Positions 9,013 through 39,971 of a DNA stretch of 64,000 nucleotides are shown one piece after another. The DNA comes from an uncultured Gammaproteobacteria bacterium (GTDB lineage Bacteria > Pseudomonadota > Gammaproteobacteria > DRLM01). The position numbers and the translations under genes were made by a program. The DNA lies in the NCBI GenBank assembly GCA_963729605.1, contig CAVSNY010000007.1, positions 1,024,001 through 1,088,000 of the forward strand. The letters run 5' to 3'. Position 1 is the stretch's first letter, and every line of letters begins with the position of its first letter. Below the pieces are notes generated by a model. That model was not told the DNA's origin and ran no database searches. It saw nothing but the letters and a program-made list of their open reading frames with translations.

Positions 9013-9016
9013 GCCT

Positions 9017-9310: not shown

Positions 9311-9473
9311 CGGGACAGATTTATTTATCCCTTTTGGAGAGTATCTTGTCGTAGACAAGGTGGAAGCAATAGTAGGAAGGCGAATTGAAAAGCGCGTACC
9401 CGGCAGGCCGCAAGAGGCTGCGTCAAATGCGTAGTAGTTTATGATTGACGAGAGAATAAAATAAATCTTCCCC
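9311..9473 (+). mobile_element. ~162-bp inverted-repeat mini-element (Y1/RAYT transposase remnant), copy 1
   Basis: Ends GGGACAGATTTATTT / AAATAAATCTTCCCC; internal VDKVEAIVGRRIEKRVPGRP; near-identical copy at 39770-39931. Confidence 0.75.
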
Positions 9474-9554
9474 AATTTTTCCAGAGGCCGTCGTCGATTT
9501 CCTCGAGGCCGACGTATTGTCCGGCGCAGACAATGAAGACGTTGACCCAGTAGT

Positions 9555-9613
9555 GTAGGCTGGGTCAGCCGCGTGACGGCGTAACCCACCAACCCGCCGC
9601 GCAGCGACTCATC
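9555..9613 (+). repeat. GTAG-type REP hairpin with conserved arm
   Basis: GTAGGCTGGGTCAG...CGTAACCCACC followed by CGCGCAGCGACTCATC; same family as 22.4, 32.1-32.4 and 43.9 kb. Confidence 0.8.
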
Positions 9614-9668
9614 TACTGAAGAACGAACCGCAACCTAGAGTTGGTGCGACAGATACAACCCGTGGTTT

Positions 9669-10709
9669 TTACCCCGCCTCTTGCAAGCGCCAAGCGATCT
9701 TGCCGCCGGCCCGTAGCGGCACCACCGTCTCGCGGCCGAAAACATACGAGTCCGGAATTTCCTGTTCTTGTTTAATCAAGGTGACTTGCTCGTGATTGCG
9801 CGGCAGCCCGTAAAAATCCGCGCCGTGAAAACTGGCGAAGCCTTCCAGTTTTTCCAAGGCGCCGGTCTGTTCGAAGGCCTCGGCATAGAACTCCAGCGCG
9901 GCGTGGGCGGTGTAGGTGCCGGCGCAACCGCAGGCGGCTTCCTTGGTGGCGCGGCTGTGCGGGGCGCTGTCGGTGCCCAGGAAAAATTTGGGATTGCCGC
10001 TGGTGGCGGCGCGCAGCAGCGCGGCGCGGTCGTCTTCGCGTTTCAATACCGGCAGACAATAATAGTGAGGGCGGATGCCGCCGGCGAGCAGATCGTTGCG
10101 ATTGAGCAGGAGGTGATGCGCGGTGATCGTGGCGGCGATATTGGCGGAGGCGCCGAGTACGAAACTCACCGCGTCGCGGGTGGTGATGTGTTCGAAAACG
10201 ATTTTCAGCGCGCTGAAGCGCGCGGTGAGCGGCAGCAAATTTTGTTCGATGAAGATCCGTTCGCGATCGAAGATGTCGATGTGCGCGGCGGTGACCTCGC
10301 CGTGGACCAGCAGCGGCAGGCCGACTTCTTCCATGGCCGCCAGAGCGGGATGGCAGCGTTCCAGCGCGGTGACGCCCGCATCCGAATTGGTGGTGGCGCC
10401 GGCCGGATAGAGTTTCACTCCCTGCACGATGCCGCTGTTTTTGGCGCGGCGGATTTCCTCGGGCGGGGTATTGTCGGTGAGGTACAGCGTCATCAAGGGT
10501 TCGAAGCGCGCGCCGCGCGGCGCCGCGGCCAGGATGCGTTGCCGGTAATCCTGCGCCTGCGCGGTGGTGGTGACCGGCGGCCGGAGATTGGGCATGACGA
10601 TGGCGCGGCCGAATTGGCGCGCGGCGTGCGGCACCGTGGTGTTTAAAAAATCGCCGTCGCGGAGATGGATGTGCCAGTCGTCGGGGCGGGTCAGGGTCAG
10701 CTGCTGCAT
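9669..10709 (-). CDS. pyrC: Dihydroorotase
   Basis: [22 protein letters not shown] and GTDSAPH motifs. Confidence 0.97.
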
Positions 10710-10909
10710 GGGGGTATGATCCTTGGCGTCGAGGCGCCTATTATGCCACGGGCGATTCGCCGTGGTCCGGCCGCGCGCGGGGAAAATTCCGGCGCGATGG
10801 TATAAGATGATCGCCGCCCGCTGTCGTTCGCGGTGGATAACAAGGCAGCGTCGGCGCGTTGCCGTGGCCGCGCCTCGCTGGATTCGATAGTCGTGATGAT
10901 ATTCCGATA

Positions 10910-11887
10910 ATGACGTCCCCTCCCTTCAAGCCCGCCTGGTGGTTGCCCGGCGGCCATGTGCAAACCCTTTGGCCCGCGTTGTTGCGGCGGGCGGTCTCGC
11001 CGGTGACGCGGCGCGAGCGCGTCGAATTGCCCGACGGCGATTTCATCGACGTCGATTGGACGGGCGAGAGCGGCCCCATCGTGATCGTGCTGCACGGCCT
11101 CGGCGGTTCCATGGATTCGCACTACGCGCGCGGCATTTTACGTGCCGTCGCGGCGCGGGGCTGGCGCGGCGCGTTGATGCACTTCCGCGGTTGCAGCGGC
11201 GAGCCCAATCGTTTGTTGCGCGGTTATCACGCCGGCGACACCGGCGACCTCGCCAGTTTCGTCGCGTTGTTGCGTCAGCGCGAACCGCATATTCCACTGG
11301 CGGCGGTCGGTTATTCGCTGGGCGGCAACGTGTTGTTGAAATGGTTGGGGGAGCAGGGCGAGTCATCGCCCCTCAGCGCGGCGGTGGCGGTGTCGGTACC
11401 CTTTGATCTCGGCGCCGCCACCGCGCGGATGCAGCAAGGCTTTTCGCGGATTTACGACCGGCGTTTGCTGCGCTGTCTGCAAGACGCGCTCGCGCGGAAA
11501 CGCGCGGTGATGGCCTTGCCGTGGGATGCCGCCGCCATCGCCGCCATCGGCACTCTGCGCGCGTTCGACGAATGCGTCACCGCGCCCTTGCATGGTTTTC
11601 GCGACGCCGAAGATTATTATGACCGCGCCAGCTGCCGGCCCTATCTGCCGCGCATTCATACACCCACCTTGATCGTGCACGCCGCCGATGATCCTTTCAT
11701 GCCGCCTTCGGTGGTGCCGCCGCCGCATGTGTTGTCCGCGACCACCCGTTTGGAGTTGTCGCCGTCGGGCGGCCACGTGGGTTTCGTAAGCGGCGCACCG
11801 TGGACGCCGCGTTATTGGCTGGAGACGCGCATTCCCGATTATCTCGCCGCCACCATGACCGTGAGACGCCATCCGGCTGTGACATAA
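10910..11887 (+). CDS. YheT-like alpha/beta hydrolase
   Basis: GHVQTLW, LHGLGGS, GYSLGGN, DDPF and GGHVGF motifs. Confidence 0.85.
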
Positions 11888-11939
11888 TGCCCAAACGCAT
11901 CACGGTGTCCGCGGGTTTAGGTTTCCTATCCGAAAGGAA

Positions 11940-13190
11940 GTGGCGTTGATGGCTAAGCTCCGTAAGTCTTGGGTGTGGTCCGCGCTGGTGATCCTGGTCA
12001 TCGCCGTGCTGGTTTATTTTTACCGCGCCGGTCAGGTGCTGGAAGTCGAGACGGTGGCGGTGATCAAGGGAAATATGCTGGTGACCGTCACGCCGACCGA
12101 GACCGGTACCGTGGACAGCGACGCCACCGCGCAAATCAAGGCCGAAGTCGCGGGACGCATCAGCGAATTGCGGGTGGCGGAGGGCGCGCGGGTCAAGGCC
12201 GGCGACGTGCTGGCGCGTTTGGAGTCCAGCGAATTGGAGGCGCGGGTGGTGTTGGCGCGTTCGGTTTTAGAGGCCGCGCGTATGCGCTTGGAGTCGGCTC
12301 GCATCTCCCTGCCGTTGGAGAAGGCGCGCACCACCGCGGCGGTCGCGGAGGCGCAGGCCCGTTACGACGACGCCAAGCAGCGTTATGAAAAAAAGCAGAA
12401 GCTGCACGCGGCGCGCTTGATCCCGCAAGGCGAGATGGAATCGGCGAGCGCCGAACTGGCCACCGCCCAGGCGGTGCTGGAAACCGCGCGGGCCAATCAG
12501 GATCAAGTGGCCTTGCAGCAGCGCCAGATCGAGATCGCCGCCGCCGATGTGAAGCAGCAGGAGGCGGCCTTGCGCGTGGCGCAGGTCACTCTCGATCACA
12601 GCCTGATCCGCGCCCCCATCGCCGGCACGGTGGTCGAGTTGCCGATCAAGGTCGGTGAGTTGATGCAGCCGGGCAGCGTGGCGGCGCGCATCACCCGCCT
12701 CAATGCGTTGTACGTCAAGGCGCAAATCGACGAGGTCGATCTCAGTCGCCTGCAAGTCGGGCAAGCGGCGGAGATCCAATTCGACACCCAGCCTAATACT
12801 AAATATGCGGCGACGCTGTTCGAAATCTCGCCCGCGGTGTCGGTGGAGAAACTCAAGAGCCGCAACGTCACCGTGAAATTGCGGCTCGCCGAGCCGCCGC
12901 CGTTTTTGCGGCCCGGCATGTCGGCGGACGTGGAGATCATCGTCGCCACCGTGAACGATGTGTTGCTGGTGCCGGCCCAAACGGTGATGGCGAAAAACCA
13001 AGAGCAGTTCGTGTATGTGCTGGCCGACGGCGCGGTGGTCAAGCGGGTGATCGAGGCCGGCCGTTCCAATTGGGATGCCATCGAGGTGGTGCGGGGATTG
13101 AACCTCGGCGAGGCGGTGATCAGTTCGCTGGACGTCGAAGGTCTCAAGCCCGGCGCGCGGGCCCGGCCGGCGGCCAAGCAGGCACCTTGA
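11940..13190 (+). CDS. Efflux periplasmic adaptor (MacA-like)
   Basis: N-terminal TM, lipoyl-like halves, coiled coil, LRPGMSA. Confidence 0.9.
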   Translation: MALMAKLRKSWVWSALVILVIAVLVYFYRAGQVLEVETVAVIKGNMLVTVTPTETGTVDSDATAQIKAEVAGRISELRVAEGARVKAGDVLARLESSELEARVVLARSVLEAARMRLESARISLPLEKARTTAAVAEAQARYDDAKQRYEKKQKLHAARLIPQGEMESASAELATAQAVLETARANQDQVALQQRQIEIAAADVKQQEAALRVAQVTLDHSLIRAPIAGTVVELPIKVGELMQPGSVAARITRLNALYVKAQIDEVDLSRLQVGQAAEIQFDTQPNTKYAATLFEISPAVSVEKLKSRNVTVKLRLAEPPPFLRPGMSADVEIIVATVNDVLLVPAQTVMAKNQEQFVYVLADGAVVKRVIEAGRSNWDAIEVVRGLNLGEAVISSLDVEGLKPGARARPAAKQAP

Positions 13191-13192
13191 GT

Positions 13193-13894
13193 ATGGCGGA
13201 CACAGCGCTCATCGAATTGCGGGACGTGAGCAAGGTGTTCGTCACCGGCGCGATCCGTTATGAGGTCTTGAAAGGCATCTCTCTCCGCATCGAGCGCGGC
13301 GATTACATCGCCTTGATGGGTCCCTCCGGTTCGGGCAAATCCACCTTGCTCAATATCCTCGGTTGTCTCGACGCGCCCACCGGCGGCCACTATCACCTTG
13401 AAGGACGCGAGATCGTCAGCCTCGGCGATGCGGAACTGGCGCGGACCCGCAATCAGTTTTTCGGTTTCGTGTTTCAGTCCTTCAATCTGCTGGGGCGTTA
13501 TTCGGTGGAGGAAAACGTCGCCTTGCCCATGGTGTACCGGGGCCTGGCCAAGCGCGAGCGTTTACAGCGCGCCCGCGCCTTGCTGGCGCGGGTCGGCCTC
13601 AAGGACTTCAATCGCCACCTGCCCTCCGAGTTGTCCGGGGGCATGCAGCAGCGGGTGGCCATCGCGCGCGCGCTGGTCAACGCGCCCAAGGTGTTGTTCG
13701 CCGATGAACCCACCGGCAACCTCGACAGCAAGACCGGTCAGGAAATCATCAGTCTGTTCGGCGAACTCAACGCCGAGGGCACGACCTTGGTGGTGGTGAC
13801 CCACGACCCGCGGGTGGCCGAGCATACCCGGCGGGTGCTGACGCTCGCCGACGGCGCGATCGTGGAAGACCGGCGCAAGGAGGTGGCGGCATGA
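13193..13894 (+). CDS. ABC ATP-binding protein (MacB/LolD-like)
   Basis: [16 protein letters not shown] and ADEPTGNLD motifs. Confidence 0.92.
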
Positions 13895-15093
13895 ATCCCC
13901 TGGAACATTTTCGCATCGCGATGGGCGCCCTGGCCGCCAACAAGGTGCGTTCGTTTCTCACCATGCTCGGCGTGATCATCGGCGTGGCCTCGGTGATCAT
14001 GCTGGTGGCGATCGGTGAAGGCGCCAAGACCTACATCCGCCAGGAGTTGATGGGTATCGGCACCAATCTGCTGATCATTGTGCCGGGCAAGACCGAGACC
14101 AGCGGCATGGGGCACATGCCCTCCGGCGTGCAAAAGCTGACCCTCGCCGATATGCGCGCGCTGGAAAAACGCGCCACGCTGGTCACCGCCATGACGCCCA
14201 TCGTGGTGAGCAGCGCGCCGGTGAAGTTGGGCAACCGTCTGCGCAATGTGCAGGTCATCGGCACCGATCACAACTTCGAGACCGTGCGCAATCTGCACGT
14301 GGAGATCGGCTCCTTCATCAGCAAGGCGGATGTGGACGCCGGTCGGCGGGTGGCGGTGATCGGCCGCACGGTGAAGAAGGAATTGTTCGGCGAGAGCAAT
14401 CCCCTGGGCCGCACCATCAAACTCGGCGAGACCAAATTCCGGGTCATCGGCATCATGGAAACCAAAGGGGTGACCCTGGGGCAGGACATCGACGATCACG
14501 TGTTCATTCCGGTCGAGACCGCGCAAGAGATCTTCGATCAGGACGGTCTCACCAATATCCTCGCGCAAGCGATCAACGAGAGCGCCATCGAACGCGCCAA
14601 GGAGCAGATCCGCGACGTGCTTATCCAGCGCCATGCCGGTGAAGAGGATTTCACCCTGGTCAGTCAGCAGGCCATGCTCTCCACCATGCAGACCATACTC
14701 GGCACCTTCACTTATGTGCTGGGCGGTATCGCCAGCATTTCGCTGTTGGTGGGCGGGATCGGCATCATGAATATCATGTTGGTCTCGGTGCGCGAGCGCA
14801 CCCGCGAGATCGGTTTGCGCAAGGCCATCGGCGCCGCGCAGCGCGACATCCTGCTGCAATTCGTCATCGAATCGGTGGTGTTGTCCATGGTCGGCGGTCT
14901 GATCGGCATCGTATTCGGCACCGGCGTCGCCTATGGCGCCAAGGCGGTTTTCCCCGCCATTCCCATCGATGTCAGCACCTGGTCGGTGCTCACCGCTTTC
15001 ATCTTCGCCTTCATGGTCGGCGCCTTCTTCGGTATTTATCCCGCCAGCAAGGCGGCGCGCCTCAATCCCATCGAAGCCTTACGGTATGAATAA
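13891..15093 (+). CDS. ABC permease (MacB/FtsX-like)
   Basis: RSFLTMLGVIIG, ERTREIGLRKAIGA and PIEALRYE motifs. Confidence 0.92.
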   Translation: MNPLEHFRIAMGALAANKVRSFLTMLGVIIGVASVIMLVAIGEGAKTYIRQELMGIGTNLLIIVPGKTETSGMGHMPSGVQKLTLADMRALEKRATLVTAMTPIVVSSAPVKLGNRLRNVQVIGTDHNFETVRNLHVEIGSFISKADVDAGRRVAVIGRTVKKELFGESNPLGRTIKLGETKFRVIGIMETKGVTLGQDIDDHVFIPVETAQEIFDQDGLTNILAQAINESAIERAKEQIRDVLIQRHAGEEDFTLVSQQAMLSTMQTILGTFTYVLGGIASISLLVGGIGIMNIMLVSVRERTREIGLRKAIGAAQRDILLQFVIESVVLSMVGGLIGIVFGTGVAYGAKAVFPAIPIDVSTWSVLTAFIFAFMVGAFFGIYPASKAARLNPIEALRYE

Positions 15094-15501
15094 CATTGCG
15101 TGATAGTGGATGACGCGGGTGCGGAACCGGACATGATGAAACCCGTGATTAAATCCGACCGCGCGCGGCTGGAATTTTTTAGAACTATTCTCGTCGAGCG
15201 TGAAATACCATCCGTCGATTGCCGGGCGATTCCGGAAAAAGCGCGGCTGCCATTCAGCAAAATATTGTCGGTCCGCCGGGCGAACGGAGAAATACTCCGC
15301 CCCGCTTGCAAGCGGCAAGGGCGAGTGTTAAAAGGAAGGGCGGCGAAATGTTTTGCCGCCTCAGGCAATGGCGCGGAGCCGCCGCTTGCTGTGGGTGTTT
15401 AAAGGATTGGCCGAGGGTTGGCTGCTTGTCGTCGGACACGTTGTGCGTTAGTGATTCGATGGCTTCATTTCGATCAATGCACATTTCTGAGAGACTGATT
15501 C

Positions 15502-15774
15502 ATGAATATATATGTTGGCAATCTTTCCTATAGCGTTACCGAAAGTGATTTGAAAGATGCGTTTTCCCAGTTTGGACAAGTGTCGAGCGTGAGCGTGGTC
15601 ACCGACAAGTTTTCCGGACAATCGAAAGGCTTCGGCTTCGTCGAGATGCCGAGCAATGCCGAGGCGGATGCCGCCATCAAAGGCCTGAACGAGCGCGATA
15701 TCAAAGGCCGCAACATCAAGGTCAACCAAGCCAAACCCCGCGAAGAGCGCCCCGCCCGCCGGCCCCGTTACTAA
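15502..15774 (+). CDS. RRM RNA-binding protein
   Basis: RNP2 IYVGNL and RNP1 KGFGFVEM. Confidence 0.93.
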   Translation: MNIYVGNLSYSVTESDLKDAFSQFGQVSSVSVVTDKFSGQSKGFGFVEMPSNAEADAAIKGLNERDIKGRNIKVNQAKPREERPARRPRY

Positions 15775-15967
15775 AAGCAGGCCACCCATCTCCAAAACGG
15801 GGGATAGCGATATTCCCCGTGGTTTTTCCGCTTCGCCATTCAACGCGGCCGCTGGAAACATGCCGGCCTCTCGGTCGTGGCGCTCTCCCGCGCAGGCGCG
15901 GTAATTCACCAGCCAGATTCGAAGCACGGCCGGTACGACGCAGGCCCCGTCGCGCTCGTCCCGCCGA

Positions 15968-16211
15968 TTATTGGTGTTTGTCGTCGGTACGCATGTCGTC
16001 ATCCGAGCTGAAGTCTTCTTGCCGGGTCTCCGACATTTCGTCGTAATAATCGGCTTCGCGGCCAGGCAGCGTGGACTTGTCGTCGATCTTCAACCACACG
16101 TCGTAAAAGCGCGCGAGCATTTTTCTGCCTTGATCCGCCGAGGTGATGAAATCAAAGTCGCGGAGGAAATCATCGAAATCATGCACGCCCTTGGCGATGG
16201 TGCGGAGCATG
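15968..16211 (-). CDS. Small acidic hypothetical protein (start uncertain)
   Basis: Asp/Glu-rich ORF with plausible codon usage filling an intergenic gap. Confidence 0.4.
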
Positions 16212-16369
16212 GCCGGTAAATCGTGATCGGCGGCCCATGTCGAAAGGCATCGCGTGACTCCCATTCACGGACGCGGCAAGATGGCCGCGAAAAGAGTAGT
16301 CTGCATATTAGAATGGTGCCCTCGATCGACCCGGCGTGGGTCGTCGGAGCCCACCTGGTGGAGGATACG

Positions 16370-17359
16370 ATGGAGATGAATGCGGATACACCCAAGCCGT
16401 TACGGATATCCGATGGAGCGAATGGACGTATCGGTTTGGCGTTGGGCGGCGGCTCGGCGCGGGGTTGGGCCCACATCGGCGTCATTCGCGCGTTGGCCGA
16501 AATCGGCATAAAACCGGATATCGTGGCTGGGACCTCCATCGGCGCGCTGGTGGGCGCGGCTTACGCCGGCGAGCAACTGGACGCCTTGGAGCGCTGGGTC
16601 ACTGGGCTCAACTGGAAAGACATACCCGGTTATCTCGATTTGTCCTTGTTGAGCGGCGGCTTCATTCAAGGTGAAAAACTCCTGGAATTGGCCCGCGGCT
16701 GGATGAAGGACCTCCCTATCGAAGCCTTGCCGCGCCGCTTCGGTATGGTGGCCACCGAGCTCGATACCGGCCGCGAGATCTGGTTTCGCGAAGGGCCCTT
16801 GTTCACGGGGGTGCGCGCATCGATGGGCCTGCCCGGTTTGTTCGCGCCGGTCAAGGTCGAAGGACGCTGGCTGGTGGACGGTGGCTTGACCAATCCGGTG
16901 CCGGTTTCCTTGTGCCGCGCCATGGGCGCGGAGGTGGTGATCGCGGTCAATCTGAACGGCGACATCGTCGGCAAACACGGCCGCCGCCGCAATGGGCGCA
17001 ATGGAACGGCTGATGCGCCGGCGTTGAATCCGAGCGCCGAAGCCGATTTTTGGAATAAAATTTCCACTCAATTCAAAAACGGTTTGAACGAGCGTAAGCA
17101 AGTGTTGCTGGGGCGTGTGTTCGGTACCAGCCTTGATGCACCGGGTCTCTTCGATGTGCTGGCCAGTTCCATCAATATCATGCAGGACCGCATCACCCGC
17201 AGCCGCATGGCCGGCGATCCGCCGGAGATCATGTTGGCGCCCAGATTGTCGCAGTTGGGACTGATGGAATTCCACCTGGCCGCGGTCGCTATCGCCGAAG
17301 GCCGTGCCAGTGTGCAGCGCATGCGTCCGGCGCTGGAACAGGTCATTCAGGGTTTATGA
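16370..17359 (+). CDS. rssA: Patatin-like phospholipase (RssA-like)
   Basis: GGGSARGWAHIG, GTSIG, DGG and QDRITRSRMAGDPP motifs. Confidence 0.85.
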   Translation: MEMNADTPKPLRISDGANGRIGLALGGGSARGWAHIGVIRALAEIGIKPDIVAGTSIGALVGAAYAGEQLDALERWVTGLNWKDIPGYLDLSLLSGGFIQGEKLLELARGWMKDLPIEALPRRFGMVATELDTGREIWFREGPLFTGVRASMGLPGLFAPVKVEGRWLVDGGLTNPVPVSLCRAMGAEVVIAVNLNGDIVGKHGRRRNGRNGTADAPALNPSAEADFWNKISTQFKNGLNERKQVLLGRVFGTSLDAPGLFDVLASSINIMQDRITRSRMAGDPPEIMLAPRLSQLGLMEFHLAAVAIAEGRASVQRMRPALEQVIQGL

Positions 17360-17483
17360 TCGAGCCGGCTTCCGGCTCACGGTGATTGAAGAAACTCGGC
17401 GCGGCTCGATGTCCGCTTGCACCTCGCTCTTTCCCGCCGCCGCGCTTGGTTGATTCCTCGGGCGCGTCCTCATCGGCATGGGG

Positions 17484-19136
17484 TCAGGTATTTTTGAAAT
17501 GACCGACCCGCTTGATCAGCTCGCCGGCCAGCGATTCCAGGGTCTCCACCGCCTGCAAGGTCGCCGCCGTGGAGAGTTCGATCTGACCGGCGAAACCGCT
17601 GACGGTTTCGATCTGTTCCCCGACGTTCGCCGACACATAGGCCTGTTCCTCGGCGGCGGTGGCGATTTGGGTGGTTTGGTCGCGGATATCCTGCACCGAT
17701 TGGCTTATCGAGCCGAGTTTCTCACTGACCGAACTTATTCTGCCGCGCATGCCTTCCGAGGCTTGTACGCTTTCGCGCATGGTGCTGCGGGCGTTTTCCG
17801 CGCCGGTCAGCAATTCCTCGATGCGCGCGCGCACCTCCCCGGTGGATTCGCGGGTACGTTTCGCCAAGGTGCGGACTTCATCCGCCACTACCGCGAAACC
17901 GCGGCCCTGTTCACCGGCGCGGGCCGCCTCGATCGCCGCGTTCAAGGCCAGTAAATTGGTTTGGTCGGCGACGTCTCGAATCAGACCGATGATATTCCCG
18001 ACATCGGCCATTACTTTATTGAGGCGTTCCAATTCGTCGCGGCTGGTGTTGATCTTGATCTCCAGTTCCCGCATGTACCGGTCGGCGTCGGACGCCACCT
18101 GAGCGCCGGCTTGCGCGGCTTCACGGGCCTGTTCCCCCGCGGCGGCGGCATGGGAGCAGCTACGTGACACCTCGCTGGCGGTACTGGCCAGTTCGGTCGA
18201 CGCCGCGGCGACCTGTTGCGTCAGATTGCGTTGTTGGCCGATGCCTTCGCCGGCGGTGAGCATGGTGCGCCGTAGTTCGGCGCTGGCCGCGTGCAACTCA
18301 TGGCCGGTGCGGGAGAGGTCGGCGATCAATTGTCCCAACTGCGCGACCATGGCATTGAAGGCGCGGCCGACTTGCGCCATCTCGTCTTTGCCCTCGGCCG
18401 GCAATTGGCTGGACAGATCGCCCGCCGCCACGCTTTCGGTGATCTTCACCAAACGGTCGAGGGGCAGGGTGATGCGGCGTACGAAAATGATATAGCTCGC
18501 GACCAGCAGGCCGGCGACCAGCAGCACCAGGCTTAAGACGCCGACCACATTGGCATGGGCGCTGTCCACCAAGCGTTGGTAATCATTGTTGGTACGTTTA
18601 TCGAGCAGGGTTTGGAATTAAGTCACCGGTTCTTTGATGCGCGTCACGGCGTCGTGATAAGCGGTGTCATGCACCAGCTTAATGGCGTCGTCGCGGGTAC
18701 CGGGCGCCTTGCCTTCGATGATGTTGAAGGCGCGTTCCTCGGTGGTCACCAGGGCCAGCGACAACTCGTTGGCCCGCGCCAGCAGTTCCAGCTCTTCCGC
18801 GGTGAAGCCTTTTTCCCGCAAGAGGGCGTCGAAGGCGATGGTACGGCCGTCGGGGCGGGCGGCCTTGCCTTCCAACACCTCGACGAGATGCCAGTATTGA
18901 TCGCGAAATCCGGTGTCGCCGGTCACCACGTAGGTGCGCGCCAAGCGGGTCAACTCATCGGAGGTGACGCTCACTTCCTGTCCCAATTGATAGGATTCAA
19001 GGCGTTCCTCGGCGGCCTTCACCAGGCTCGCTTGATGGGCGATCAACCACCACACTAAGAGGGCGGTGATGGTGAGGGCGGTGAGCCCCGCGCCGACGAA
19101 GGTTTTCAAAAGACGTTTGATGCTCATGCCGGCCAC
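17484..19136 (-). pseudogene. Methyl-accepting chemotaxis protein with in-frame TAA at 18618-18620
   Basis: TM-sensor ORF and HAMP/MA ORF are in the same frame: [13 protein letters not shown]...; [17 protein letters not shown]. Confidence 0.88.
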
Positions 19137-19190
19137 CGAGGAATGAATAGAGAGAATAAACCAAGGGCGGCGCCGCTTGGCCCGGTGGGG

Positions 19191-26785: not shown

Positions 26786-26818
26786 GATTATTTCAACTCC
26801 TCTTGCATTTAAAATCGG

Positions 26819-30166: not shown

Positions 30167-31159
30167 ATGAACGCCGCTGACAAGAAACGGCTCCTGCGCG
30201 AGATGCTTTTCGCGCGACGTTTTGAGGAGCGCTGCTACGAGGCCTACGTGGAGCGCAAAATTGGTGGATTTCTCCATCTTTATCCGGGCGAAGAGGCCTG
30301 TGCCTTCGGGGTGTTGGACGCCGCGCGCCCCGGCCATGATTACGTGATCACCGGTTACCGCGATCACGTGCACGCCATCAAGTGCGGCGCCGATCCCAAA
30401 AAGGTGATGGCCGAACTGTTCGGCAAGGAGACCGGGTCCAGCAAAGGCCGCGGCGGCTCCATGCACATCTTCGACGCCGAACACCGTTTCATGGGCGGTT
30501 ACGCCCTGGTGGGCGGCCCCTTCCCGCTGGCGGTGGGCATGGCCAAGGGCATCAAGATGAAGGGCGGCGACGAGATCTCCATTTGCTTTTTGGGTGACGC
30601 CGCCAACAACCAGGGCACGTTCCATGAATCGCTGAACATGGCGTCCTTGTGGGAGCTGCCGGTGTTGTTCGTCTGCGAAAACAATCTGTACGGCATCGGC
30701 ACCCGCATCGACCGTTCCACCGCGGTGATCGAGCAATACAAACGGGTGTGCGGCTACAACATCCCCTCCGCGCAGGTGGACGGCCAGGACATCGAACAGG
30801 TGTACGCCGCCGCCAAGATCGCCGTCGATCACGTGCGTTCCGGCAAGGGGCCGTACTTCCTGGAATTGATGACCTACCGTTATCGCGGCCACTCCATGTC
30901 CGACTCCAATGCCTACCGCGCCAAGGAAGAAGAGCGCATGTGGGGTAAGCGCGATCCCATCATCATCCTGCGCGACCGCCTCATCGAGGCCGGCGAGCTC
31001 AGCATGGATGATTACAAGCGCATGGACGACGAGGTGTTGGAATTCATCGAAAAAGAAATCATCAAGTTCGCCGAGGAATCACCGGAGCCCAAGCTTGAGG
31101 AATTGGAAAAATACGTGCTGGCGGAGAACGATCCGTACGTACGCGGGGGAGTGCATTGA
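30167..31159 (+). CDS. pdhA: Pyruvate dehydrogenase E1 alpha
   Basis: GFLHLY, GRGGSMH, GDAANNQG and YRYRGHSMSD motifs. Confidence 0.93.
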   Translation: MNAADKKRLLREMLFARRFEERCYEAYVERKIGGFLHLYPGEEACAFGVLDAARPGHDYVITGYRDHVHAIKCGADPKKVMAELFGKETGSSKGRGGSMHIFDAEHRFMGGYALVGGPFPLAVGMAKGIKMKGGDEISICFLGDAANNQGTFHESLNMASLWELPVLFVCENNLYGIGTRIDRSTAVIEQYKRVCGYNIPSAQVDGQDIEQVYAAAKIAVDHVRSGKGPYFLELMTYRYRGHSMSDSNAYRAKEEERMWGKRDPIIILRDRLIEAGELSMDDYKRMDDEVLEFIEKEIIKFAEESPEPKLEELEKYVLAENDPYVRGGVH

Positions 31160-32136
31160 TGGCAGTCATGATGTATTGGGAGGCGATCCGCCGCGCCCAC
31201 GATGAAGAGATGGCGCGCGATCCGCTGGTGATCTGCATGGGCGAGGACATCGGCGTGGTCGGCGGTACCTATAAAGCCACCCAAGGCCTGTACGACAAAT
31301 ACGGCCCCGAGCGCGTAATCGATACGCCGATCTCGGAAAACAGCTACACCGGCCTCGGCATCGGCGCGTCGTTTTTAGGCATACGTCCCATCATCGAGAT
31401 CATGTCGGTGAACTTCGCCTGGCTCGCCACCGATCAGATATTCAACAGCGCCGCCAAAGTGCGCTACATGTCCGGCGGCCAGCTCACCGCGCCGGTGGTG
31501 ATCCGTTCGCCGGGCGGCACCGCGCATCAGCTCGGCGCGCAGCATTCGGCGCGCATGGAAAAGGTGTTCATGGGTATCGCGGGTCTGCGCGTCGTGACGC
31601 CGTCGAGTCCGAAGCAGGCTTACGGTCTGCTCAAGTCCGCCGTGCGCTGTAACGACCCCGTGTTCATCAACGAGCACGAACTCATGTACAACATGAAGGG
31701 CGAGGTGCCCGACGCGGAATATTTCCATCCGCTCGAAGGCTCCGAGGTCACCCGGGCCGGCAAGGACGTCACCCTGTTCGGCTACAACATCTCGGTGCAT
31801 TGGTGCGTGCAGGCCGCCGAGCAACTTGCCAAAGACGGCATCGACTGCGAAGTGATCGACCTCTATTCCTTGAGCCCGCTCGATCGCGCCGGCATCAAGA
31901 AGTCGGTGAGCAAGACCCACCGTGCGATCGTGGTGGAAGAGGCCGAGGCGCCGGTCGGCGTCGGTTCCGAAGTGATGGCCATCATCAACGAAGAGTGTTT
32001 CTTCGAGCTGGATGCCGCGCCCGTGCGCGTGTCCGCGGTGAACGTGCCCATCCCCTACAATCACCACTTGGAAAAAGCCGCCATCCCCAACGCCAAGAAG
32101 GTCGTCGAGGCGGTGCGCAAGATGTTGGGCAAATAA
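31159..32136 (+). CDS. pdhB: Pyruvate dehydrogenase E1 beta
   Basis: MGEDIG, DTPISE and AQHS motifs. Confidence 0.93.
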   Translation: MAVMMYWEAIRRAHDEEMARDPLVICMGEDIGVVGGTYKATQGLYDKYGPERVIDTPISENSYTGLGIGASFLGIRPIIEIMSVNFAWLATDQIFNSAAKVRYMSGGQLTAPVVIRSPGGTAHQLGAQHSARMEKVFMGIAGLRVVTPSSPKQAYGLLKSAVRCNDPVFINEHELMYNMKGEVPDAEYFHPLEGSEVTRAGKDVTLFGYNISVHWCVQAAEQLAKDGIDCEVIDLYSLSPLDRAGIKKSVSKTHRAIVVEEAEAPVGVGSEVMAIINEECFFELDAAPVRVSAVNVPIPYNHHLEKAAIPNAKKVVEAVRKMLGK

Positions 32137-32139
32137 AAT

Positions 32140-32429
32140 GTAGCGTGGGTTAGGCGCGTCTTCGCGCCGTAACCCACCAAGCCGCGCCGTCAGGCGCACC
32201 TTTAAAATATTAAGGAGTCGCTGCGCGACGCTCGGTGGGTTACGGCGTTGTCACCCTCACCCCATCCCTCTCCCGCTTGCGGGAGAGGGGGAGATGGAAA
32301 GGATGAATTGATCGGCGTCTAACCCACCCTACATTCTTACTCCCTCTCTCTTGATGGGAGAGGGCAGGGGAGAGGGTAAGCGCGACGGTCGGTGGGTTAC
32401 GGCGCAACAATCCGCCCAACCCACCCTAC
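32140..32429. repeat. Composite REP cluster with nested second palindrome family
   Basis: Three GTAG..GGGTTAG/TAACCCACC REPs plus two CCCTCTCCC..GGGAGAGGG hairpins, one inside a REP loop. Confidence 0.85.
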
Positions 32430-32461
32430 ATATACAACTTCAGTTTCTATCAGGGACAGTC

Positions 32462-35400
32462 ATGGCAGAACCCTACGCAATCAAAATGCCCCAGCTTTCC
32501 GACACCATGACCGAAGGCGTCATTGTGAGCTGGGAAAAGAAAATCGGTGACAAGATCGAGCGCGGCGACATCGTCGCCACCGTCGAGACCGACAAGGCGG
32601 TGATGGACGTCGAGGTGTTCCGCGCCGGTTATCTCTCCGGCCCGATGCTGCCCGCCGACAGCACCGTGCCGGTGGGTGATGCCATCGCTTATCTGGTCGA
32701 AAGCGCCGATCAAGTGCAGCGCGGCGACGCCGCGCCCGCGAAGAAAGAAGCTGCATCAGCGCAGCAGCCCGCGCCGCGCCAGCCGGATCGCGAAGAGATT
32801 CAGCGTGAAGCCGGGCCGGTGCATGAAACGACCGAATCGCACGACACGCATGCCGCCGCCGAGTCGCATGACGAGCACGCCTCCACCGCCGCCGAGTCCG
32901 AGGCCCCCGCAGGCGCGACCTATACCATCAAAATGCCGCAGCTCTCCGACACCATGACCGAAGGTCTGGTCGTGAGCTGGGAGAAGAATCTCGGCGACAA
33001 GATCGCGCGCGGCGACATCGTCGCGACGGTCGAGACCGACAAGGCGGTGATGGACGTCGAGGTGTTCCGCGAAGGTTACCTCTCCGGCCCGCAGGCCGCG
33101 GTCGACAGCACCGTGCATGTCGGCGGCGTGCTCGCGTATCTGGTCGAATCGCCCGAGCAGGTGCAGAAGGGCAGCATCGCCGCCGGCGCCGCGCCCGCGA
33201 AGCAAGCTGCCACGCCTGCCGCGACGAAATCCACGTCGGCCCCCGCGAAACGCGAAGCCGCACCCGTCGCGCCGCAATTGAGCGGCACGGCCAAGCCCGC
33301 GCCGCGTCCCGACAACAAACAGGCCTCGCCGTACGCGCGCAAGCTCGCGGGCGAGCTGCACGTGAATCTCAACAACGTGCGCGGCACCGGCCCCAATGGC
33401 GAGATCACCGCCGACGATGTATTGAAAGCGCAGCCTGTGCATCGTGCCGCCGGCACGGTCGCGCCGATGCCGGCGCACGCCATGCCCGAGGTGCAAGTGC
33501 CCGGCGATGGCCGCCCGATGACGTCGATGGAAAAGGCGGTGAGTCATTCGATGACCGCGTCGCTCACCATGCCGACCTTCCGCGTGTCGGTGAACGCGCA
33601 GCCCGGCGCGCTCATCAAGGCCGCGAAGAAGAAAGGCGTGTCGGTGACGGTCGCGATCGCCAAGGCGTGCGCCGAAGCGATCCAGAAACACCCGCGTATG
33701 AACGCCTGTTATCAGCCCGTCGACAAGATCGTCGAACGCAGCAACATCGACGTCGGCATGGCCGTCTCCGCCGACGGCGGCGGTTTGGTCGTGCCGGTGC
33801 TGCGTCACGCCGAACAGAAGTCGGTCGAAGAATTGAATGAAGCCTGGGGCGGCCTCGTCGAGCGCGCGCGCAAGCGCCGCCTCGCGCCCGAGGAATACGC
33901 CAATCCGACCTTCATGGTCTCGAACATGGGCATGCTCGGCGTCACGTATTTCGACGCGATCCCCACGCCCGGCACGGCCGCGATCCTCGCGATTTCCTCG
34001 GCGGGTAAAGACGGCATGCCGCTCACCATCACCGCCGATCATCGCGTGGTGAATGGCGCCGACGTCGCGGTGTTCCTGAACACGCTGAAGCAGAAGATCG
34101 AGCAGCCGGAAGAATGGATAGGCCCGCTGGGCTCTGCCATTCCCGAAGGCGATTGGAATTACGACGTGGTCGTGATCGGCGGCGGACCCGGCGGCGAAGA
34201 CTGCGCGCGCGATCTCGCCGAGCATGGCTTGAAGGTCGCGATGATCAACGACGCGCCGCTGCCCGGCGGCGAATGTCTGTGGCGCGGCTGCATACCGTCG
34301 AAGGCGTGGCGCGCGGCGGCGGATCGCATCCGCGACCGCGTGCACGATGAACACCTCGGCGTCGAGAACACCACCGACGCGCGCCTCAACTGGGCCAAGC
34401 TCGAAGAGACACGCCGCAAGGTGCTCGAGACGCGCGGCGAAATGGCGCTCAAGACCGACACCGGCGTCAAGATCAAAGTCATCCAAGGCTACGCCTCGTT
34501 CGAGACTGACCACCGCATCTTCGTCGACACCTCGAACAACCAAACCGAACGCCACGCGCGCGCCGCGGCCGGCGACCGCAGCAAAGGCGAACACATCACC
34601 TTCGGCTGCGCGGTCATCGCTACCGGCGCGCCGCCGTTCGTACCGCCCATCCCCGGCGCGCACGAAGGCGTGCAGAGCGGCGGTGTGCTCACCTCCGACA
34701 CCGTGTGGTGGCTGAAAGAAGTGCCGAAGACGCTGGCCGTGGTCGGCGGCGGCGCCATCGGCGTCGAGATGGCGCAGATCTTCCAGGACTTCGGCAGCGA
34801 AGTCGTGCTGGTCGAGGCGCAGCCGCGCATCCTCGCCGAGGTCGAGCCCGAGGTCGCGAAGAATCTCACGCAGATACTCAACGACGATCCGCGCCTCACC
34901 ATCCACACCGGCGCCAAGGTCAGCGAGATCAAAGGCACGCCCGGCAAGATGCAGCTCGTGTTCGAAGACGGCGAAGGCAAGAAGACTACGGTCGCCTGCG
35001 ATTACGTGCTGATGGCGACCGGCAAACGCCCCGTGCTCGAACCGCTCGAGTTGAATAACGCCGGCGTTGCGATCGAAAAAGGTGTGATCAAGGCCGACGT
35101 GCGTTGCCGCACCAGCGTGCCGCACATCTTCGCCGTGGGCGACGTCATCGGCGGCTACATGCTCGCGCACACCGCGGGGCAACAAGGCCGCGTCGCCGCC
35201 GCCAACATCCTCGGCGAAGACATGAAGTACGACCAGGATAAAGACTGTGGCGTCATCTTCACGCGACCCGAAGCCGCGTTCGTCGGCCTCTCCGTTGACC
35301 AAGCGAAAGCCAAAGGCATCGACGCCGCGGAAGTGAAAGTGCCCATGGCCATTGATGCCAAGGCCATGATCACCGCCGAGACGCAAGGCCTCATCAAAAT

Positions 35401-35623
35401 CGTCGCCGACAAACAAAGTCACCGCATCGTCGGCGTCCACTTCCTCGCCGACCACGCCGACACCTTGATCGGCGAAGCGGTGATGATGGTCTCCGCCAAC
35501 ATGAGCTTGGAACAAGTCGCGCAGGCCATCCATCCGCATCCGACGCAAACGGAGTTGTTCGGAGAGATGGCGAGGAGGCTGCTGTCGCGATTGAGGCGGA
35601 GTGAAAAAGCGAAGGCGAAATAA
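32462..35623 (+). CDS. Fused PDH E2 (2 lipoyl + binding + acetyltransferase) - E3 dihydrolipoamide dehydrogenase
   Basis: Two ETDKA lipoyl motifs, ASPYARKLA, DHRVVNG, then GGGPGG, CLWRGC and HPHPTQTE in one ORF. Confidence 0.92.
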   Translation: MAEPYAIKMPQLSDTMTEGVIVSWEKKIGDKIERGDIVATVETDKAVMDVEVFRAGYLSGPMLPADSTVPVGDAIAYLVESADQVQRGDAAPAKKEAASAQQPAPRQPDREEIQREAGPVHETTESHDTHAAAESHDEHASTAAESEAPAGATYTIKMPQLSDTMTEGLVVSWEKNLGDKIARGDIVATVETDKAVMDVEVFREGYLSGPQAAVDSTVHVGGVLAYLVESPEQVQKGSIAAGAAPAKQAATPAATKSTSAPAKREAAPVAPQLSGTAKPAPRPDNKQASPYARKLAGELHVNLNNVRGTGPNGEITADDVLKAQPVHRAAGTVAPMPAHAMPEVQVPGDGRPMTSMEKAVSHSMTASLTMPTFRVSVNAQPGALIKAAKKKGVSVTVAIAKACAEAIQKHPRMNACYQPVDKIVERSNIDVGMAVSADGGGLVVPVLRHAEQKSVEELNEAWGGLVERARKRRLAPEEYANPTFMVSNMGMLGVTYFDAIPTPGTAAILAISSAGKDGMPLTITADHRVVNGADVAVFLNTLKQKIEQPEEWIGPLGSAIPEGDWNYDVVVIGGGPGGEDCARDLAEHGLKVAMINDAPLPGGECLWRGCIPSKAWRAAADRIRDRVHDEHLGVENTTDARLNWAKLEETRRKVLETRGEMALKTDTGVKIKVIQGYASFETDHRIFVDTSNNQTERHARAAAGDRSKGEHITFGCAVIATGAPPFVPPIPGAHEGVQSGGVLTSDTVWWLKEVPKTLAVVGGGAIGVEMAQIFQDFGSEVVLVEAQPRILAEVEPEVAKNLTQILNDDPRLTIHTGAKVSEIKGTPGKMQLVFEDGEGKKTTVACDYVLMATGKRPVLEPLELNNAGVAIEKGVIKADVRCRTSVPHIFAVGDVIGGYMLAHTAGQQGRVAAANILGEDMKYDQDKDCGVIFTRPEAAFVGLSVDQAKAKGIDAAEVKVPMAIDAKAMITAETQGLIKIVADKQSHRIVGVHFLADHADTLIGEAVMMVSANMSLEQVAQAIHPHPTQTELFGEMARRLLSRLRRSEKAKAK

Positions 35624-35644
35624 TCCGCCGCTTTATATCCCCCC

Positions 35645-35673
35645 AAGGCCAGCACCCGCTGGCCTTTTCTTTT
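35645..35673 (+). terminator. Intrinsic terminator after the pdh operon
   Basis: AAGGCCAGC-accc-GCTGGCCTTTTCTTTT. Confidence 0.75.
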
Positions 35674-35755
35674 ACTGGGCTTGTGGCGCGTCCCCGCGCG
35701 TTCTATGATCGTGGCCAAATAACCCAATAAATACCGCGTATCTCGAGGGGGGAGT

Positions 35756-36100
35756 ATGTTGGTCGGCACCGTCCGCAGGCCCGGCGCCAAGGGCACTCGC
35801 AAATTCGTCGAACACTACGGCGACCGCTTGATTTGCGTGCGTTACCGTCACGACCCTGCCCAGGGCCGCCGTGACAAGACGGCGGAACCCATCGTAGAAG
35901 CAAGCCGGTGGTGTCCCTCGTCCGTATCCGTGTCTGCCCTCCTCGTGTGTCGCCGTGCGTATAGGCATATATGAAAAGACCTGCAACCCAAAACAACGCC
36001 TGGGCGGTATATAGCGAGCCGCGGAACGTCAGTGGCATACCCCGAATTCGAAGTGCGTAAGCTGGGCTTGGCGGGCTGTATTGTGAGGAAAGATGAAGGT
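35756..36100 (+). pseudogene. Degenerate hypothetical gene immediately upstream of cassette array 2
   Basis: PGAKGTRKFVEHYGDRLICVRYR..KT; other frames give VAVRIGIYE, GGI*, VRKLGL; frameshifts and a stop. Confidence 0.55.
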
Positions 36101-36175
36101 CTAGAGGTGCTGGATATGAGGCCTTGGGTACTGAATATAGGTCCGTGGTAGTACCGGTTGGAAAAGGCACTGTGG

Positions 36176-36196
36176 GGTCGAATTTAAGTTAGCCAA
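36176..36196 (+). other. attI-like simple site / first core site of array 2
   Basis: GGTCGAA-tttaa-GTTAGCCAA; matches 7/9 the complement of the downstream attC start TTGTCTAAT. Confidence 0.6.
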
Positions 36197-36214
36197 CAAA
36201 GAGGAGGTTGCGGA

Positions 36215-36598
36215 ATGGCTACGACAGACTGGGACTTGGCGGGTACTTTTCAGGCGCGATTTCCGCATACTTTTAACGCGCTGCAGAAGCTCGTTATGGC
36301 CATGGCCGCTTATAAAAAGAATCGTGGGAAGAAAACGATGCTCGGGAAGGACAAAGGGTTGGATTCATACAAGAAGTTCGAAAGCGTTCTTCGGGATACG
36401 TTGTTAGCCATGGTCGTGGATGGGGCAGTGGAAAGAAACGTAAAGGCGAAAGAGTGCCGCGAAACTCTTACGGAGATGGTCGCGGCTTTTGCGGAAGTAT
36501 TTCCAAATTGGCAGGACGCGTACTCATTTGCGGACGAATATTTCATAAAGAACGCTGTCACTGCCGAAGATAGAATTCGAGACATGTTGCGCCAGTAA
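36215..36598 (+). CDS. Cassette hypothetical protein (gene 1 of a two-gene cassette)
   Basis: Strong RBS GAGGAGG, lower GC, follows the core site. Confidence 0.8.
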   Translation: MATTDWDLAGTFQARFPHTFNALQKLVMAMAAYKKNRGKKTMLGKDKGLDSYKKFESVLRDTLLAMVVDGAVERNVKAKECRETLTEMVAAFAEVFPNWQDAYSFADEYFIKNAVTAEDRIRDMLRQ

Positions 36599-36880
36599 CC
36601 TGGCGACTTCTGTGAGGGTATAACGATGGGGCTATGGGACTCAGTATTTGGAAAGAAGGTTACGATTCAAGGTCGTGATGAAAACGGCAAACCATTCGAA
36701 ACCAAGGTATCTGAAAAGCAGTTCAAGAAATGGGAGCAGGAAGGTCTTCTGAGTAAAACAGAGGTAGTTGAAGTACACGTCCTCGATCCGAAAGGTAGTT
36801 ACACCACACATTGGAAAGTTGGTGAGGACATTTCCGCCGAAGTGGTCGAAAAATTCAAGAACCCGGCCACCATGTAGTGG

Positions 36881-38088
<1,208 letters not shown>

Positions 38089-38235
38089 TCACCCAGAATC
38101 AGGTGGCCAAATCGACTATGCCACTACACCAACAAACTTTACGCATTTACTGTGTACGAAGCAGGGGAACCAAAGACCAGCGTGCTTCAATACGCCAAGT
38201 GGCTGGAAATTAAAGTGGCAATGGGAGAGTGAATT

Positions 38236-38323
38236 GTCTAATAAGCACAAGCACGCAGACCGAAAAAAGCGCCACTCGTTCCTCTCTCTGCTTTTTTCGG
38301 CCGGTGATGCGCGGCGGTTAGGC
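38236..38323 (+). repeat. attC site 3 (R'' AAC appears mutated to AAT)
   Basis: GTCTAAT...CCGAAAAAAGC..GCTTTTTTCGG...GTTAGGC hairpin right after the stop codon. Confidence 0.8.
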
Positions 38324-38344
38324 TAACAAAAATGGGGGCGTGAA

Positions 38345-38797
38345 ATGATTGAACGTTTGAATCTAAAAATATTCATAATTGGTGCTGTCTTTCTAATTGT
38401 TGGTTGCGCATCTACTGCACGTCTCTATCCTAGCAACGATCTGGCTTCAAGCATTGGCATGCTTAAAGCTACATATATGGATTATGGTGTTGGTGGCGGA
38501 AAAATTACGATAAATATGCCTGATGGAGAAACCCTGACTGGGGAATACTCTACTGCGGATACAAGTTCCTATGGTTTTGGTAATGTCTATGCCAGTGTGT
38601 ATGGAACGAATGGCAGTGCGTTTGGTTCCGGGACATCGACAATGACTGCGGTTTCTGGTTCAAGTCCAGGAGTGGCTTCATTGTATGGTGACAAAGGAAC
38701 ATCTATGACCTGTGAATATTTTGTGAACAATTGGACTGGAAAAGGGGCAGGTGCATGCAAGTCATCCTCGGGCGCTCTTTTCAAGCTGCATTTCTAG
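38345..38797 (+). CDS. Cassette lipoprotein, hypothetical
   Basis: Lipobox IVGC; bounded by attC sites. Confidence 0.8.
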   Translation: MIERLNLKIFIIGAVFLIVGCASTARLYPSNDLASSIGMLKATYMDYGVGGGKITINMPDGETLTGEYSTADTSSYGFGNVYASVYGTNGSAFGSGTSTMTAVSGSSPGVASLYGDKGTSMTCEYFVNNWTGKGAGACKSSSGALFKLHF

Positions 38798-38807
38798 ATG
38801 TACCGCG

Positions 38808-38913
38808 GCCTAACAAGGCAAATTCACGCGGACACATTTCCGCAACGCTCGTTTGTGGCGAATGCCACAAGCCTCCTGTTGCTACAATGTGCCGGTGATT
38901 TGCGGCGTTAGGC
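38808..38913 (+). repeat. attC site 4
   Basis: GCCTAAC...GTTAGGC canonical ends, 106-bp imperfect palindrome. Confidence 0.9.
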
Positions 38914-38919
38914 TTCACC

Positions 38920-39675
38920 ATGAGCAACGGCGGTATCTATCTCATCATCCATAAGCCCACGGGCAAGGTATACGTTGGTCAAGCCATTAGCTACTTGCGC
39001 CGATGGAAAAAACATAGCGAGGATCTCGATTCAGGACTGCATCATAATTACAAGCTGCAATCGCTGTGGACTCGTGATGGCCCATCAGCTTTTGAATTCA
39101 AGAAGCTACGCTTGCTTCCTGATGGGTTAACCGCACTGGAACGCCAACGCTGGCTAGTCCGAATGGAGAGAGAATCTTGGGACTTCTATCGAAAGAGCGA
39201 TCTGGCACTGAATATTGCATCACCAGAAATCGTCGAAACACCAGACGCGTTGGCCGAATACAAATTGGAACGTAAGAACACAACAAGTGAATTAACCGCT
39301 CACATTAAATCACTAAAACCACAAATTGAAGAAGCCCAGCTTAACTTTCGCACGAAATCGCGTGACGAATACGAATTCCGAATGGCGTTTGAAAAAGCGT
39401 GGGCACTGCTAAAGAGAAATTCTGGCTGGCGCGGCTTCCTATTTGGTAAAACCACATCAACACCTGTGGAGATATTGAAGAGAGAAGCCGAACGCCGTGC
39501 AGCCGAACTTATTAACGCGGAACTAGCGACGCGCCATGCTAACGATCTACTTCAGTCACTTGAGAAGCAGCGAAAGGAGCTGTATCGCTCCTATCCCGGC
39601 AACCAAGACCGTCGGATACGCGGAACCGATCTCTTCTTATTTACCCGTCAGAAAAATAAGACCACTATACGGTAA
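38920..39675 (+). CDS. Cassette GIY-YIG nuclease with coiled-coil C-terminus
   Basis: GIYLI...VYVGQA...RW..H...HHN..LQ..W motif. Confidence 0.85.
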   Translation: MSNGGIYLIIHKPTGKVYVGQAISYLRRWKKHSEDLDSGLHHNYKLQSLWTRDGPSAFEFKKLRLLPDGLTALERQRWLVRMERESWDFYRKSDLALNIASPEIVETPDALAEYKLERKNTTSELTAHIKSLKPQIEEAQLNFRTKSRDEYEFRMAFEKAWALLKRNSGWRGFLFGKTTSTPVEILKREAERRAAELINAELATRHANDLLQSLEKQRKELYRSYPGNQDRRIRGTDLFLFTRQKNKTTIR

Positions 39676-39705
39676 AATGAAGCGGCGCGCTCAAAACCCA
39701 AGCTC

Positions 39706-39971
39706 GTAGGGCGGAAGCCCAAAGGGCGTTTCGCCGCATGGGTTAGGCCAACGGGACCAAACCCAAAACCGGGACAGATTTATTTATCCCTTTGAAAGAG
39801 TGTCTTTCGTAGACAACGTGGAAGAAATAGTAGGAAGGCGGATCGAAAAGCGCGCACCCGGCAGGCCGCAAAAGGCTGTGCCAAATGCAGAGTAGATTGT
39901 GATTGACGAGGGATAAAATAAATCTGCCCCCATTTTTCCCGGCCGAACGTCCTCTGGGCTTCCGCCCTATG
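39706..39971. repeat. Inverted REP pair (second REP family) flanking the mini-element
   Basis: CGTAGGGCGGAAGCCC...TTCGCC and GGCCGAA...GGGCTTCCGCCCTATG. Confidence 0.7.
39770..39931 (+). mobile_element. ~162-bp inverted-repeat mini-element, copy 2
   Basis: GGGACAGATTTATTT / AAATAAATCTGCCCC ends; FVDNVEEIVGRRIEKRAPGRP peptide; colinear with 9311-9473. Confidence 0.75.

Follow-up and report, generated by a model that had tools for sequence, protein, structure and literature searches.

The window analysed here, a 64,000-nt stretch of one contig of the genome of an uncultured gammaproteobacterium (G000), contains two copies of a short element, copy A (9305..9480, + strand) and copy B (39765..39937, + strand), each lying in an array of integron cassettes (arrays A and B). 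These copies are almost certainly mini-TIRtrons, i.e. non-autonomous elements bounded by terminal inverted repeats (TIRs), which arose by one internal deletion from an element with a Y1/HUH transposase of subclass 2.1 (TIRYT) and whose founder multiplied within the genus. The link to attC sites is almost complete for this derivative, both in G000 and in a sister species of the genus (G003, assembly 75% complete), and weak for the TIRtron family. In addition, the left junction of copy A is a recent deletion that ends at the element terminus and is polymorphic among related strains.

Copies A and B agree at 153 of 177 columns over their full ends and at 87.7% over the 163 bp first drawn, in line with the 85-90% that a preliminary description, made from the sequence alone, had given for two ~162-bp copies; as it had also stated, a search found no further copy in the window. 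The inverted ends and the cassette orientation reported there were present in both copies. An alignment of 12 copies and fragments moved the ends ~6 bases outwards and yielded the termini AAAA(A)-NN-GGGACAG...CTGTCCC-NN-TTTTT, and positions 9305 and 9481 are also the break-off points of other copies in public contigs with mixed flanks. Copy A consists of a left TIR, the last ~30 codons of a TIRYT gene and a right TIR. Its C-terminal remnant (9351..9434, +) reads VDKVEAIVGRRIEKRVPGRPQEAASNA followed by a stop, and that of copy B (39806..39895, +) aligns to residues 206-228 of the 235-aa protein of a full-length TIRYT element (L037); the remnant peptide is identical to this protein at 14 of 23 positions (pairwise E 1e-9). 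The element thus shows the features of a miniature inverted-repeat transposable element (MITE), being short, gene-less, TIR-bounded and multicopy. Its fold z-scores (-1.76 and +0.98 for the halves, -1.87 for the whole) and its ends are not those of hairpins of the repetitive extragenic palindrome (REP) type. No target-site duplication was evident by eye in the flanks of the seven near-full G000 copies, and Y1 enzymes are not expected to produce one. One internal deletion is common to the nine near-full copies of G000 and G003, which show 81-92% identity, the G003 copies being interleaved, and have unlike flanks on both sides.

We searched a species-level genome collection with a 20-base left-end pattern, which returned 22 stretches. 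Three of these are full elements of 759-855 bp with both ends (L037 from Sideroxydans, L026 from Pseudomonas and L027 from Geobacter), and two are deletion derivatives retaining the same tail; further full-length TIRYT elements with the same ends were found at L264, L265, L266, L268 and L270. The ends of our copies match those of full-length elements over 15-21 bases, and a GGGG[AT][CG]A[CG]-like motif, degenerate in copies A and B, is exact in L037. The L037 protein belongs to PF01797 and carries the motifs NHVH, WE and YIELNP, a signature that the accessible text of Quentin et al. 2018 (PMC6006769) assigns to TnpA-Y1 subclass 2.1 and equates with TIRYT. The gene with these motifs is deleted in the mini-element and present in the elements sharing its ends. 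The earlier view of a non-autonomous, Y1-derived element with parent-type relatives of the same termini is therefore borne out, these relatives occurring in other taxa and none in G000. Its assignment of the tail to transposases resembling REP-associated tyrosine transposases (RAYTs) was right as to the Y1 C-terminal tail and wrong as to the type, which is TIRYT. The sole intact Y1 protein of G000 is a RAYT (C7:14) without the remnant-type tail, and we rejected a RAYT origin on this ground and because L037 scores 77.7 against a RAYT cut-off of 80 (G000 RAYT, 203). The element also does not have the DHLH/YIHxNP protein flanked by GTAG REPs that marks a RAYT/REPtron, and the proposed REP/HUH-integron hybrid system found no support.

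The direct parent was not found among plasmids, among 399 other genomes of the class searched by DNA (best two candidates per genome), or among metagenome contigs with the right-end pattern and end-matched loci; viral contigs gave six loci with both ends. By search, TIRYT is absent from G000, G001 and G003, G001 to G004 being relatives of G000, and G002 has one with other ends. The 41-residue tail, too short as a protein query, gave one spurious plant leucine-rich repeat match in 1.84 billion proteins and none in a word-indexed search. Of 400 class-level genomes, 100 gave matches to Y1 transposases of subclass 2.1, which the accessible part of Quentin et al. 2018 (PMC6006769) places in 14.9% of species.

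Genome-wide, G000 holds ten copies in six loci (seven near-full copies, one right part and two left stubs), all of them 64-1562 bp from an attC or attI-like site, so that the link to cassette arrays anticipated by the preliminary description holds and extends to G003. We used 37 att sites, some added by eye, and every copy also has a site from the genome-wide scan at most 1.6 kb away. The neighbourhood of these sites (within 2 kb) is 2.2% of the genome. As controls, we counted 45 of 443 low-GC windows (10%) and 11 of 123 low-GC islands near att sites, together with 1 of 18, 7 of 13 and 3 of 8 loci of the REP families REP1 (the main one), REP2 and REP3, respectively, and 4 of 15 loci of insertion sequences (IS; IS3/IS5, after removal of three RAYT rows from 18). 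Arrays are thus also sinks for ordinary IS. The element loci (6/6), which are not independent in these statistics, exceed IS (Fisher p 0.004) and are not separable from REP2 (p 0.11). A 57-bp mini with the same ends and an unrelated interior (C7:699) is not near an att site. This mini (C7:600-760) adjoins the RAYT gene, and its other neighbour presumably corresponds to a group II intron 3' end.

A DNA search of 40 relatives gave matches in two. In G003 there are three copies, each of them in an array, and in addition a left stub and a 57-bp mini, both cutting into attC sites; every end found in this genome is near att sites, two 2-mismatch matches being left aside. G004 has one partial copy that is not near cassettes. 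At 9 of 9 loci the orientation is that of the cassettes. In G000, GC skew assigns three loci to the leading strand and three to the lagging one, and we rejected a replication-strand bias as the cause. The copies occupy array ends, mid-array positions (G003:C134) and positions just in front of attI modules that have been truncated to varying degrees (C7:325.6, 326.8, 327.5 and 1212 kb; C5:232.7 kb, and a tip at 230.2 kb). Their junctions fall within attC, 8-37 bp past attC, after REPs or in genes, with no fixed position; left ends cut attC just after the L'' box twice (G003:C134) and also mid-site (G003:C68). The idea that the copies cap arrays was thus too narrow, as several stand mid-array or before a truncated attI and an attC (43182..43238, +) lies 3.2 kb beyond copy B; a fixed attC target likewise found no support, the junctions being scattered, nor did family-wide targeting, given the counts below. 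That the last cassette lacks its attC is correct for both arrays, although at copy A the damage goes further, into codon 95 of an HNH gene. A comparison with empty sites in relatives, suggested at the same time, yielded none: searches of G001-G003 did not recover the flanks of copy B or of the copies at 409 kb, and array A is wholly missing in G002 and G004. The G003 site that corresponds to C5:230.2 kb lacks the module of right-end tip, intI scrap and attI present there in G000.

In the TIRtron family at large, the link to attC is weak, because the 10/10 of G000 compares with 1 of 42 full-length TIRYT loci, 3 of 145 exact matches to the ends and 3 of 72 metagenome loci near attC. The 145 exact matches come from five genomes with the same ends, and the three beside an array are all in G119. 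G307 and G224 have both arrays and ends, never together, and G157 has 94 end matches between accessory and housekeeping genes and no convincing attC in seven regions inspected. For the metagenome ends, an earlier scorer, which separates only at scores of at least 30, had one control match at 40 and missed three training sites in leave-one-out, placed 4 of 80 loci from three contigs near attC, with none in a reversed control. With an attC model, whose counts in genomes are lower bounds (150 candidates scored in each), this became 3 of 72 after seven overlapping loci had been dropped (p 0.2 against a 2.2% background). Geometry like that in the window does recur in unrelated DNA (L315, L318, L347, L375 and L409); the training set of the model includes sites of L347, L375, L315 and L244, all first found by the earlier scorer.

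G157:C1 (L304, L307-L313) is a 2.0-Mb one-contig genome with one close TIRYT match. Within several of its islands, most intergenic spots are occupied by mini-ends, which flank toxin-antitoxin and ATPase genes on both sides and here and there stand in place of the start or end of a gene. In G008:C2 (L299:4774-11076), co-oriented genes come after a full TIRtron, with ends from several TIR families between them, and the last left end is fused to an attI-like core.

We compared positions 6900-10300 of the window with metagenome contigs of related strains assembled from four runs of four studies (X1, X2, X5 and X7). The HNH cassette before copy A stops at residue 95, while its relatives, the closest of which are 93-98% identical, mostly have 160-172 aa. 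In X2, one contig joins position 9299 to the element through 244 other bases, from which it follows that G000 carries a deletion adjacent to the element end. Contigs of X5 and X7 depart from the window at 9299, that of X7 continuing in HNH codons, and X1 has the same left-junction form as G000; in the three strains other than X1, the HNH cassette would extend past the cut. The right junction of copy A is common to G000 and G001; X2 has 489 extra bases at the right end, and one X7 contig returns from 9468 to 9304. All four runs lack the 99 bases at 7694-7792, which contain a hairpin in G000 and are replaced by 4 bases in the runs. Another X7 contig feature is an exit from attC mid-site, at window position 8986, into a GGGTCAG-type end that possibly represents another TIR family. 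Short repeated termini recur across the TIRtron family, and in G119 left ends are re-iterated with variable lengths of downstream DNA, be it transposase or other; this suggests end-anchored copying. Tandem left ends of this kind, with a transposase start or a merR-like gene start downstream, are seen at L295:8770-9242 and L315:3558-4460 (G119:C3).

How did this pattern arise? The explanation we put first, at about even confidence, is that the element is a non-autonomous parasite of the integron network of the genus, whose ends trim and duplicate neighbouring DNA. A TIRYT acting in trans, now absent from G000, would have cut and rejoined single-stranded DNA at the element ends. Once inside a network of ~15 platforms, a copy would have stayed and spread by local duplication, and copies may also have ridden in blocks exchanged between arrays by IntI, which is intact in relatives, or by recombination. 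Rejoining directed by the ends would have removed flanking DNA, such as one half of an attC, the 3' portion of the HNH cassette or the upstream side of an attI module, and the element would freeze and erode arrays rather than build them. The identity of the element, its copy map, the enrichment, the polymorphic deletion at one left end and tandem copies were observed, whereas the part of TIRYT in the deletion and the route of spread are inferred. Several points weigh against this explanation. Block riding predicts shared flanks, whereas all full copies have unique flanks on both sides, so that spread by riding would need repeated trimming at both ends. The 6/6 loci exceed the IS rate and the low-GC share given above, the left-end deletion could be enzyme-independent slippage, the flank searches in G001-G003 found no empty site, and the 244 bases of X2 are known by length only.

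Unique flanks are what one would expect if each copy had been inserted separately by TIRYT, on a defined strand of a cassette junction or an extruded attC hairpin, and trimmed later. We regard such an active preference as possible, if rather doubtful. It agrees with the proximity of all ten G000 copies and the examined G003 ends to att sites, with a cassette co-orientation that is independent of replichore and exceeds the family's 44:33 bias toward the neighbours' strand, and with the G003 left ends that cut attC after the L'' box or mid-site. The same geometry in unrelated DNA also speaks for it, as does the length of the X2 sequence: if the HNH protein there has 160 aa like P0001, ~44 bases would lie between its stop and the element, less than a whole attC. 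That one REP family also cuts attC in G001, G002 and G003 fits this alternative and the parasite explanation equally. Against it stand the variable junction position and the low family counts, including G307 and G224, which keep arrays and ends apart, and G157 with its many matches.

A third option, which we judge quite unlikely, is mobilisation: pairs of ends, or a left end without a partner, would carry attI-cassette blocks along and in this way create or stack integrase-less arrays. At six places in G000, and at one each in G003 and G008, an end directly adjoins a truncated attI module; C7:326845-327494 consists of an intact left end, attI, a cassette, a damaged inner left end and an intact right end; L375 has attC-gene-attC between two mini ends; and the left-end re-iteration of G119 copies non-transposase DNA. 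However, we found no block with the same boundaries at two distant sites, and a copy is lacking at about half of the loci with att sites. The type-2 attI module can stand free of element ends, as it does at C7:328.4 kb, 1213 kb and 60 kb and at window position 7832, and it is native after addB in G001. The suggestion that the element had generated the integrase-less arrays found no support in the window itself, where array B is a native integron after lpdA and array A has no left-side end. Chance accumulation in arrays that simply tolerate insertions is least probable of all: IS, REP2 and REP3 loci also lie near att sites, REP2 at a rate inseparable from 6/6, and the accessory islands of G157 have their intergenic spots filled with the same ends, yet few low-GC islands have att sites, REP1 stays away, co-orientation is strict and the pattern recurs in G003.

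Beyond these alternatives, TIRYT ends might form a second, HUH-based recombination layer on integrons, with a preference of the enzyme for single strands of attC and cassette junctions, which it would join to its own ends with variable loss; this would fix cassettes, stack attI-cassette modules and keep arrays plastic after intI loss. We consider this broader idea improbable, if not to be dismissed; were it true, accessory genes of integron-free genomes such as G157 and G008 would be brought together between mini-ends by the same chemistry.

Both arrays qualify as integron platforms, with attC-bounded cassettes behind attI-like sites. Array A has a type-2 attI-like site with promoter (7832..7909, +), the same module that stands beside the intact intI of G001 and after addB. 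We rejected this promoter as a part of the element, given that the module occurs without ends and in these two settings. It is followed by cassette 1 (7928..8356, +; 142 aa, no Pfam family), an attC (8363..8425, +; E 2e-5), cassette 2 (8469..8891, +; Rnk/GreA-like), a second attC (8949..9012, +; a member of the model's training set) and the HNH endonuclease cassette (9017..9299, +), into which the left end of copy A cuts at codon 95. Downstream of copy A follow a short foreign scrap (9481..9550), which is shared with G001 including the right junction and which may be IS481-like, and, ~75 bp from the element, a GTAG REP hairpin (9555..9613, +). Copy B is bracketed by a REP pair of family GTAGGGCGGAAGCC, with arms at 39706..39740 (+) and 39940..39969 (-); REPs thus adjoin both copies, as had been described.

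Array B is the native integron of the genus after lpdA. G001 and G002 have an intact intI there, while no match above the cut-off was found in G000; in G000 and G003 a small unrelated gene replaces intI, and the element is not at this change. The gene is decayed in the window (35756..36170, +) and intact in G003, where it encodes a 136-aa protein of no Pfam family (L225:3806-4216), directly before the attI-like core; clusters of look-alikes score 0.92-0.93 in the Atlas. The core (36165..36194, +) was identified by eye and resembles that of type 2. The array continues with a cassette of 127 aa (36215..36598, +; no Pfam family), an IS3-family element (36875..38129, -), an attC-like site seen by eye only and called by neither scorer (38237..38323, +), a cassette of 150 aa (38345..38797, +; no Pfam family), an attC (38808..38913, +; E 3e-6) and a GIY-YIG cassette without attC (38920..39675, +).

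Across its genome, G000 has ~15 integron platforms in which attI is of at least three types and intI survives as 5' scraps only, and the addB 3'-tail plus attI module is copied to several of its sites. At G000:C7:382.4 kb and 406.3 kb and at L013:740, two different REP types interrupt intI after KHYS, their cut points falling on almost one and the same codon. In four species of the genus, attC sites are cut by REP blocks, most of which belong to the GTAGGGCGGAAGCC family (L470:1440-1620, L468:1425-1620, L472:2840-2900 and G000:C5:231317), whereas the commonest REP family avoids arrays.

Among known systems, the closest are the TIRtrons themselves, described in the accessible text of Di Nocera et al. 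2013 (PMC3733652) and Quentin et al. 2018 (PMC6006769) as having inverted ends of the GGGG[AT][CG]A[CG] type that form repeat families in dimers and clusters. Our mini-element shares the end type and the Y1 parent type with NHVH, WE and YIELNP; it differs in being a gene-less deletion derivative, confined to integron arrays in the genus and with a strain-polymorphic deletion adjacent to its end. The word 'integron' is absent from the main text of both papers, and a literature search, mostly outside subscription journals and without supplements, found no paper linking TIRtrons to integrons. The REPIN/RAYT (REPtron) system, as far as the accessible part of Corneloup et al. 2021 (PMC8266576) describes it, is likewise non-autonomous DNA served by an HUH Y1 enzyme, and the REPs adjoining both copies recall its setting. 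The mini-TIRtron ends, however, have no GTAG hairpins and are linear inverted repeats; moreover, the G000 RAYT lacks the tail, and the parent type scores below the RAYT cut-off.

The IS1111-attC group, as cited in the accessible part of PMC11187229, places mobile DNA in the attC sites of cassette arrays. In contrast, the mini-TIRtron has no fixed insertion point in attC, and its family is not mainly at attC, only the derivative in G000 and G003 being so. Group II introns have reportedly been found at attC sites as well. In class 1 integrons flanked by integron mobilization units (IMUs) or MITEs, the ends bracket the integron, move it and leave a target duplication, according to the accessible part of PMC3575428. 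The likeness lies in non-autonomous ends adjoining integron parts, the difference in that arrays A and B have one copy each, are unbracketed and show no duplication, with one bracket-like unit at C7:326845-327494. Finally, clusters of attC sites lacking integron-integrases (CALINs) are integrase-less arrays of which 38% have IS nearby, as stated in the accessible text of Cury et al. 2016 (PMC4889954). Arrays A and B resemble them in lacking the integrase and in their neighbouring mobile elements; unlike CALINs, they retain attI-like sites, and array B lost intI in place. The published work we found on TIRYT is descriptive only, though subclass 2.1 is widespread. The present case supplies defined ends with a candidate signature of cleavage, intact enzymes from elements with identical ends, and a strain-level end deletion; it makes testable both the effect of TIRYT on end-adjacent DNA and any role of an HUH enzyme in freezing, eroding or stacking integron arrays, one open route to CALINs. 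Taken together, the TIRtron is a kind already known, and what is unusual here is its confinement to arrays together with a strain-level deletion at its end.

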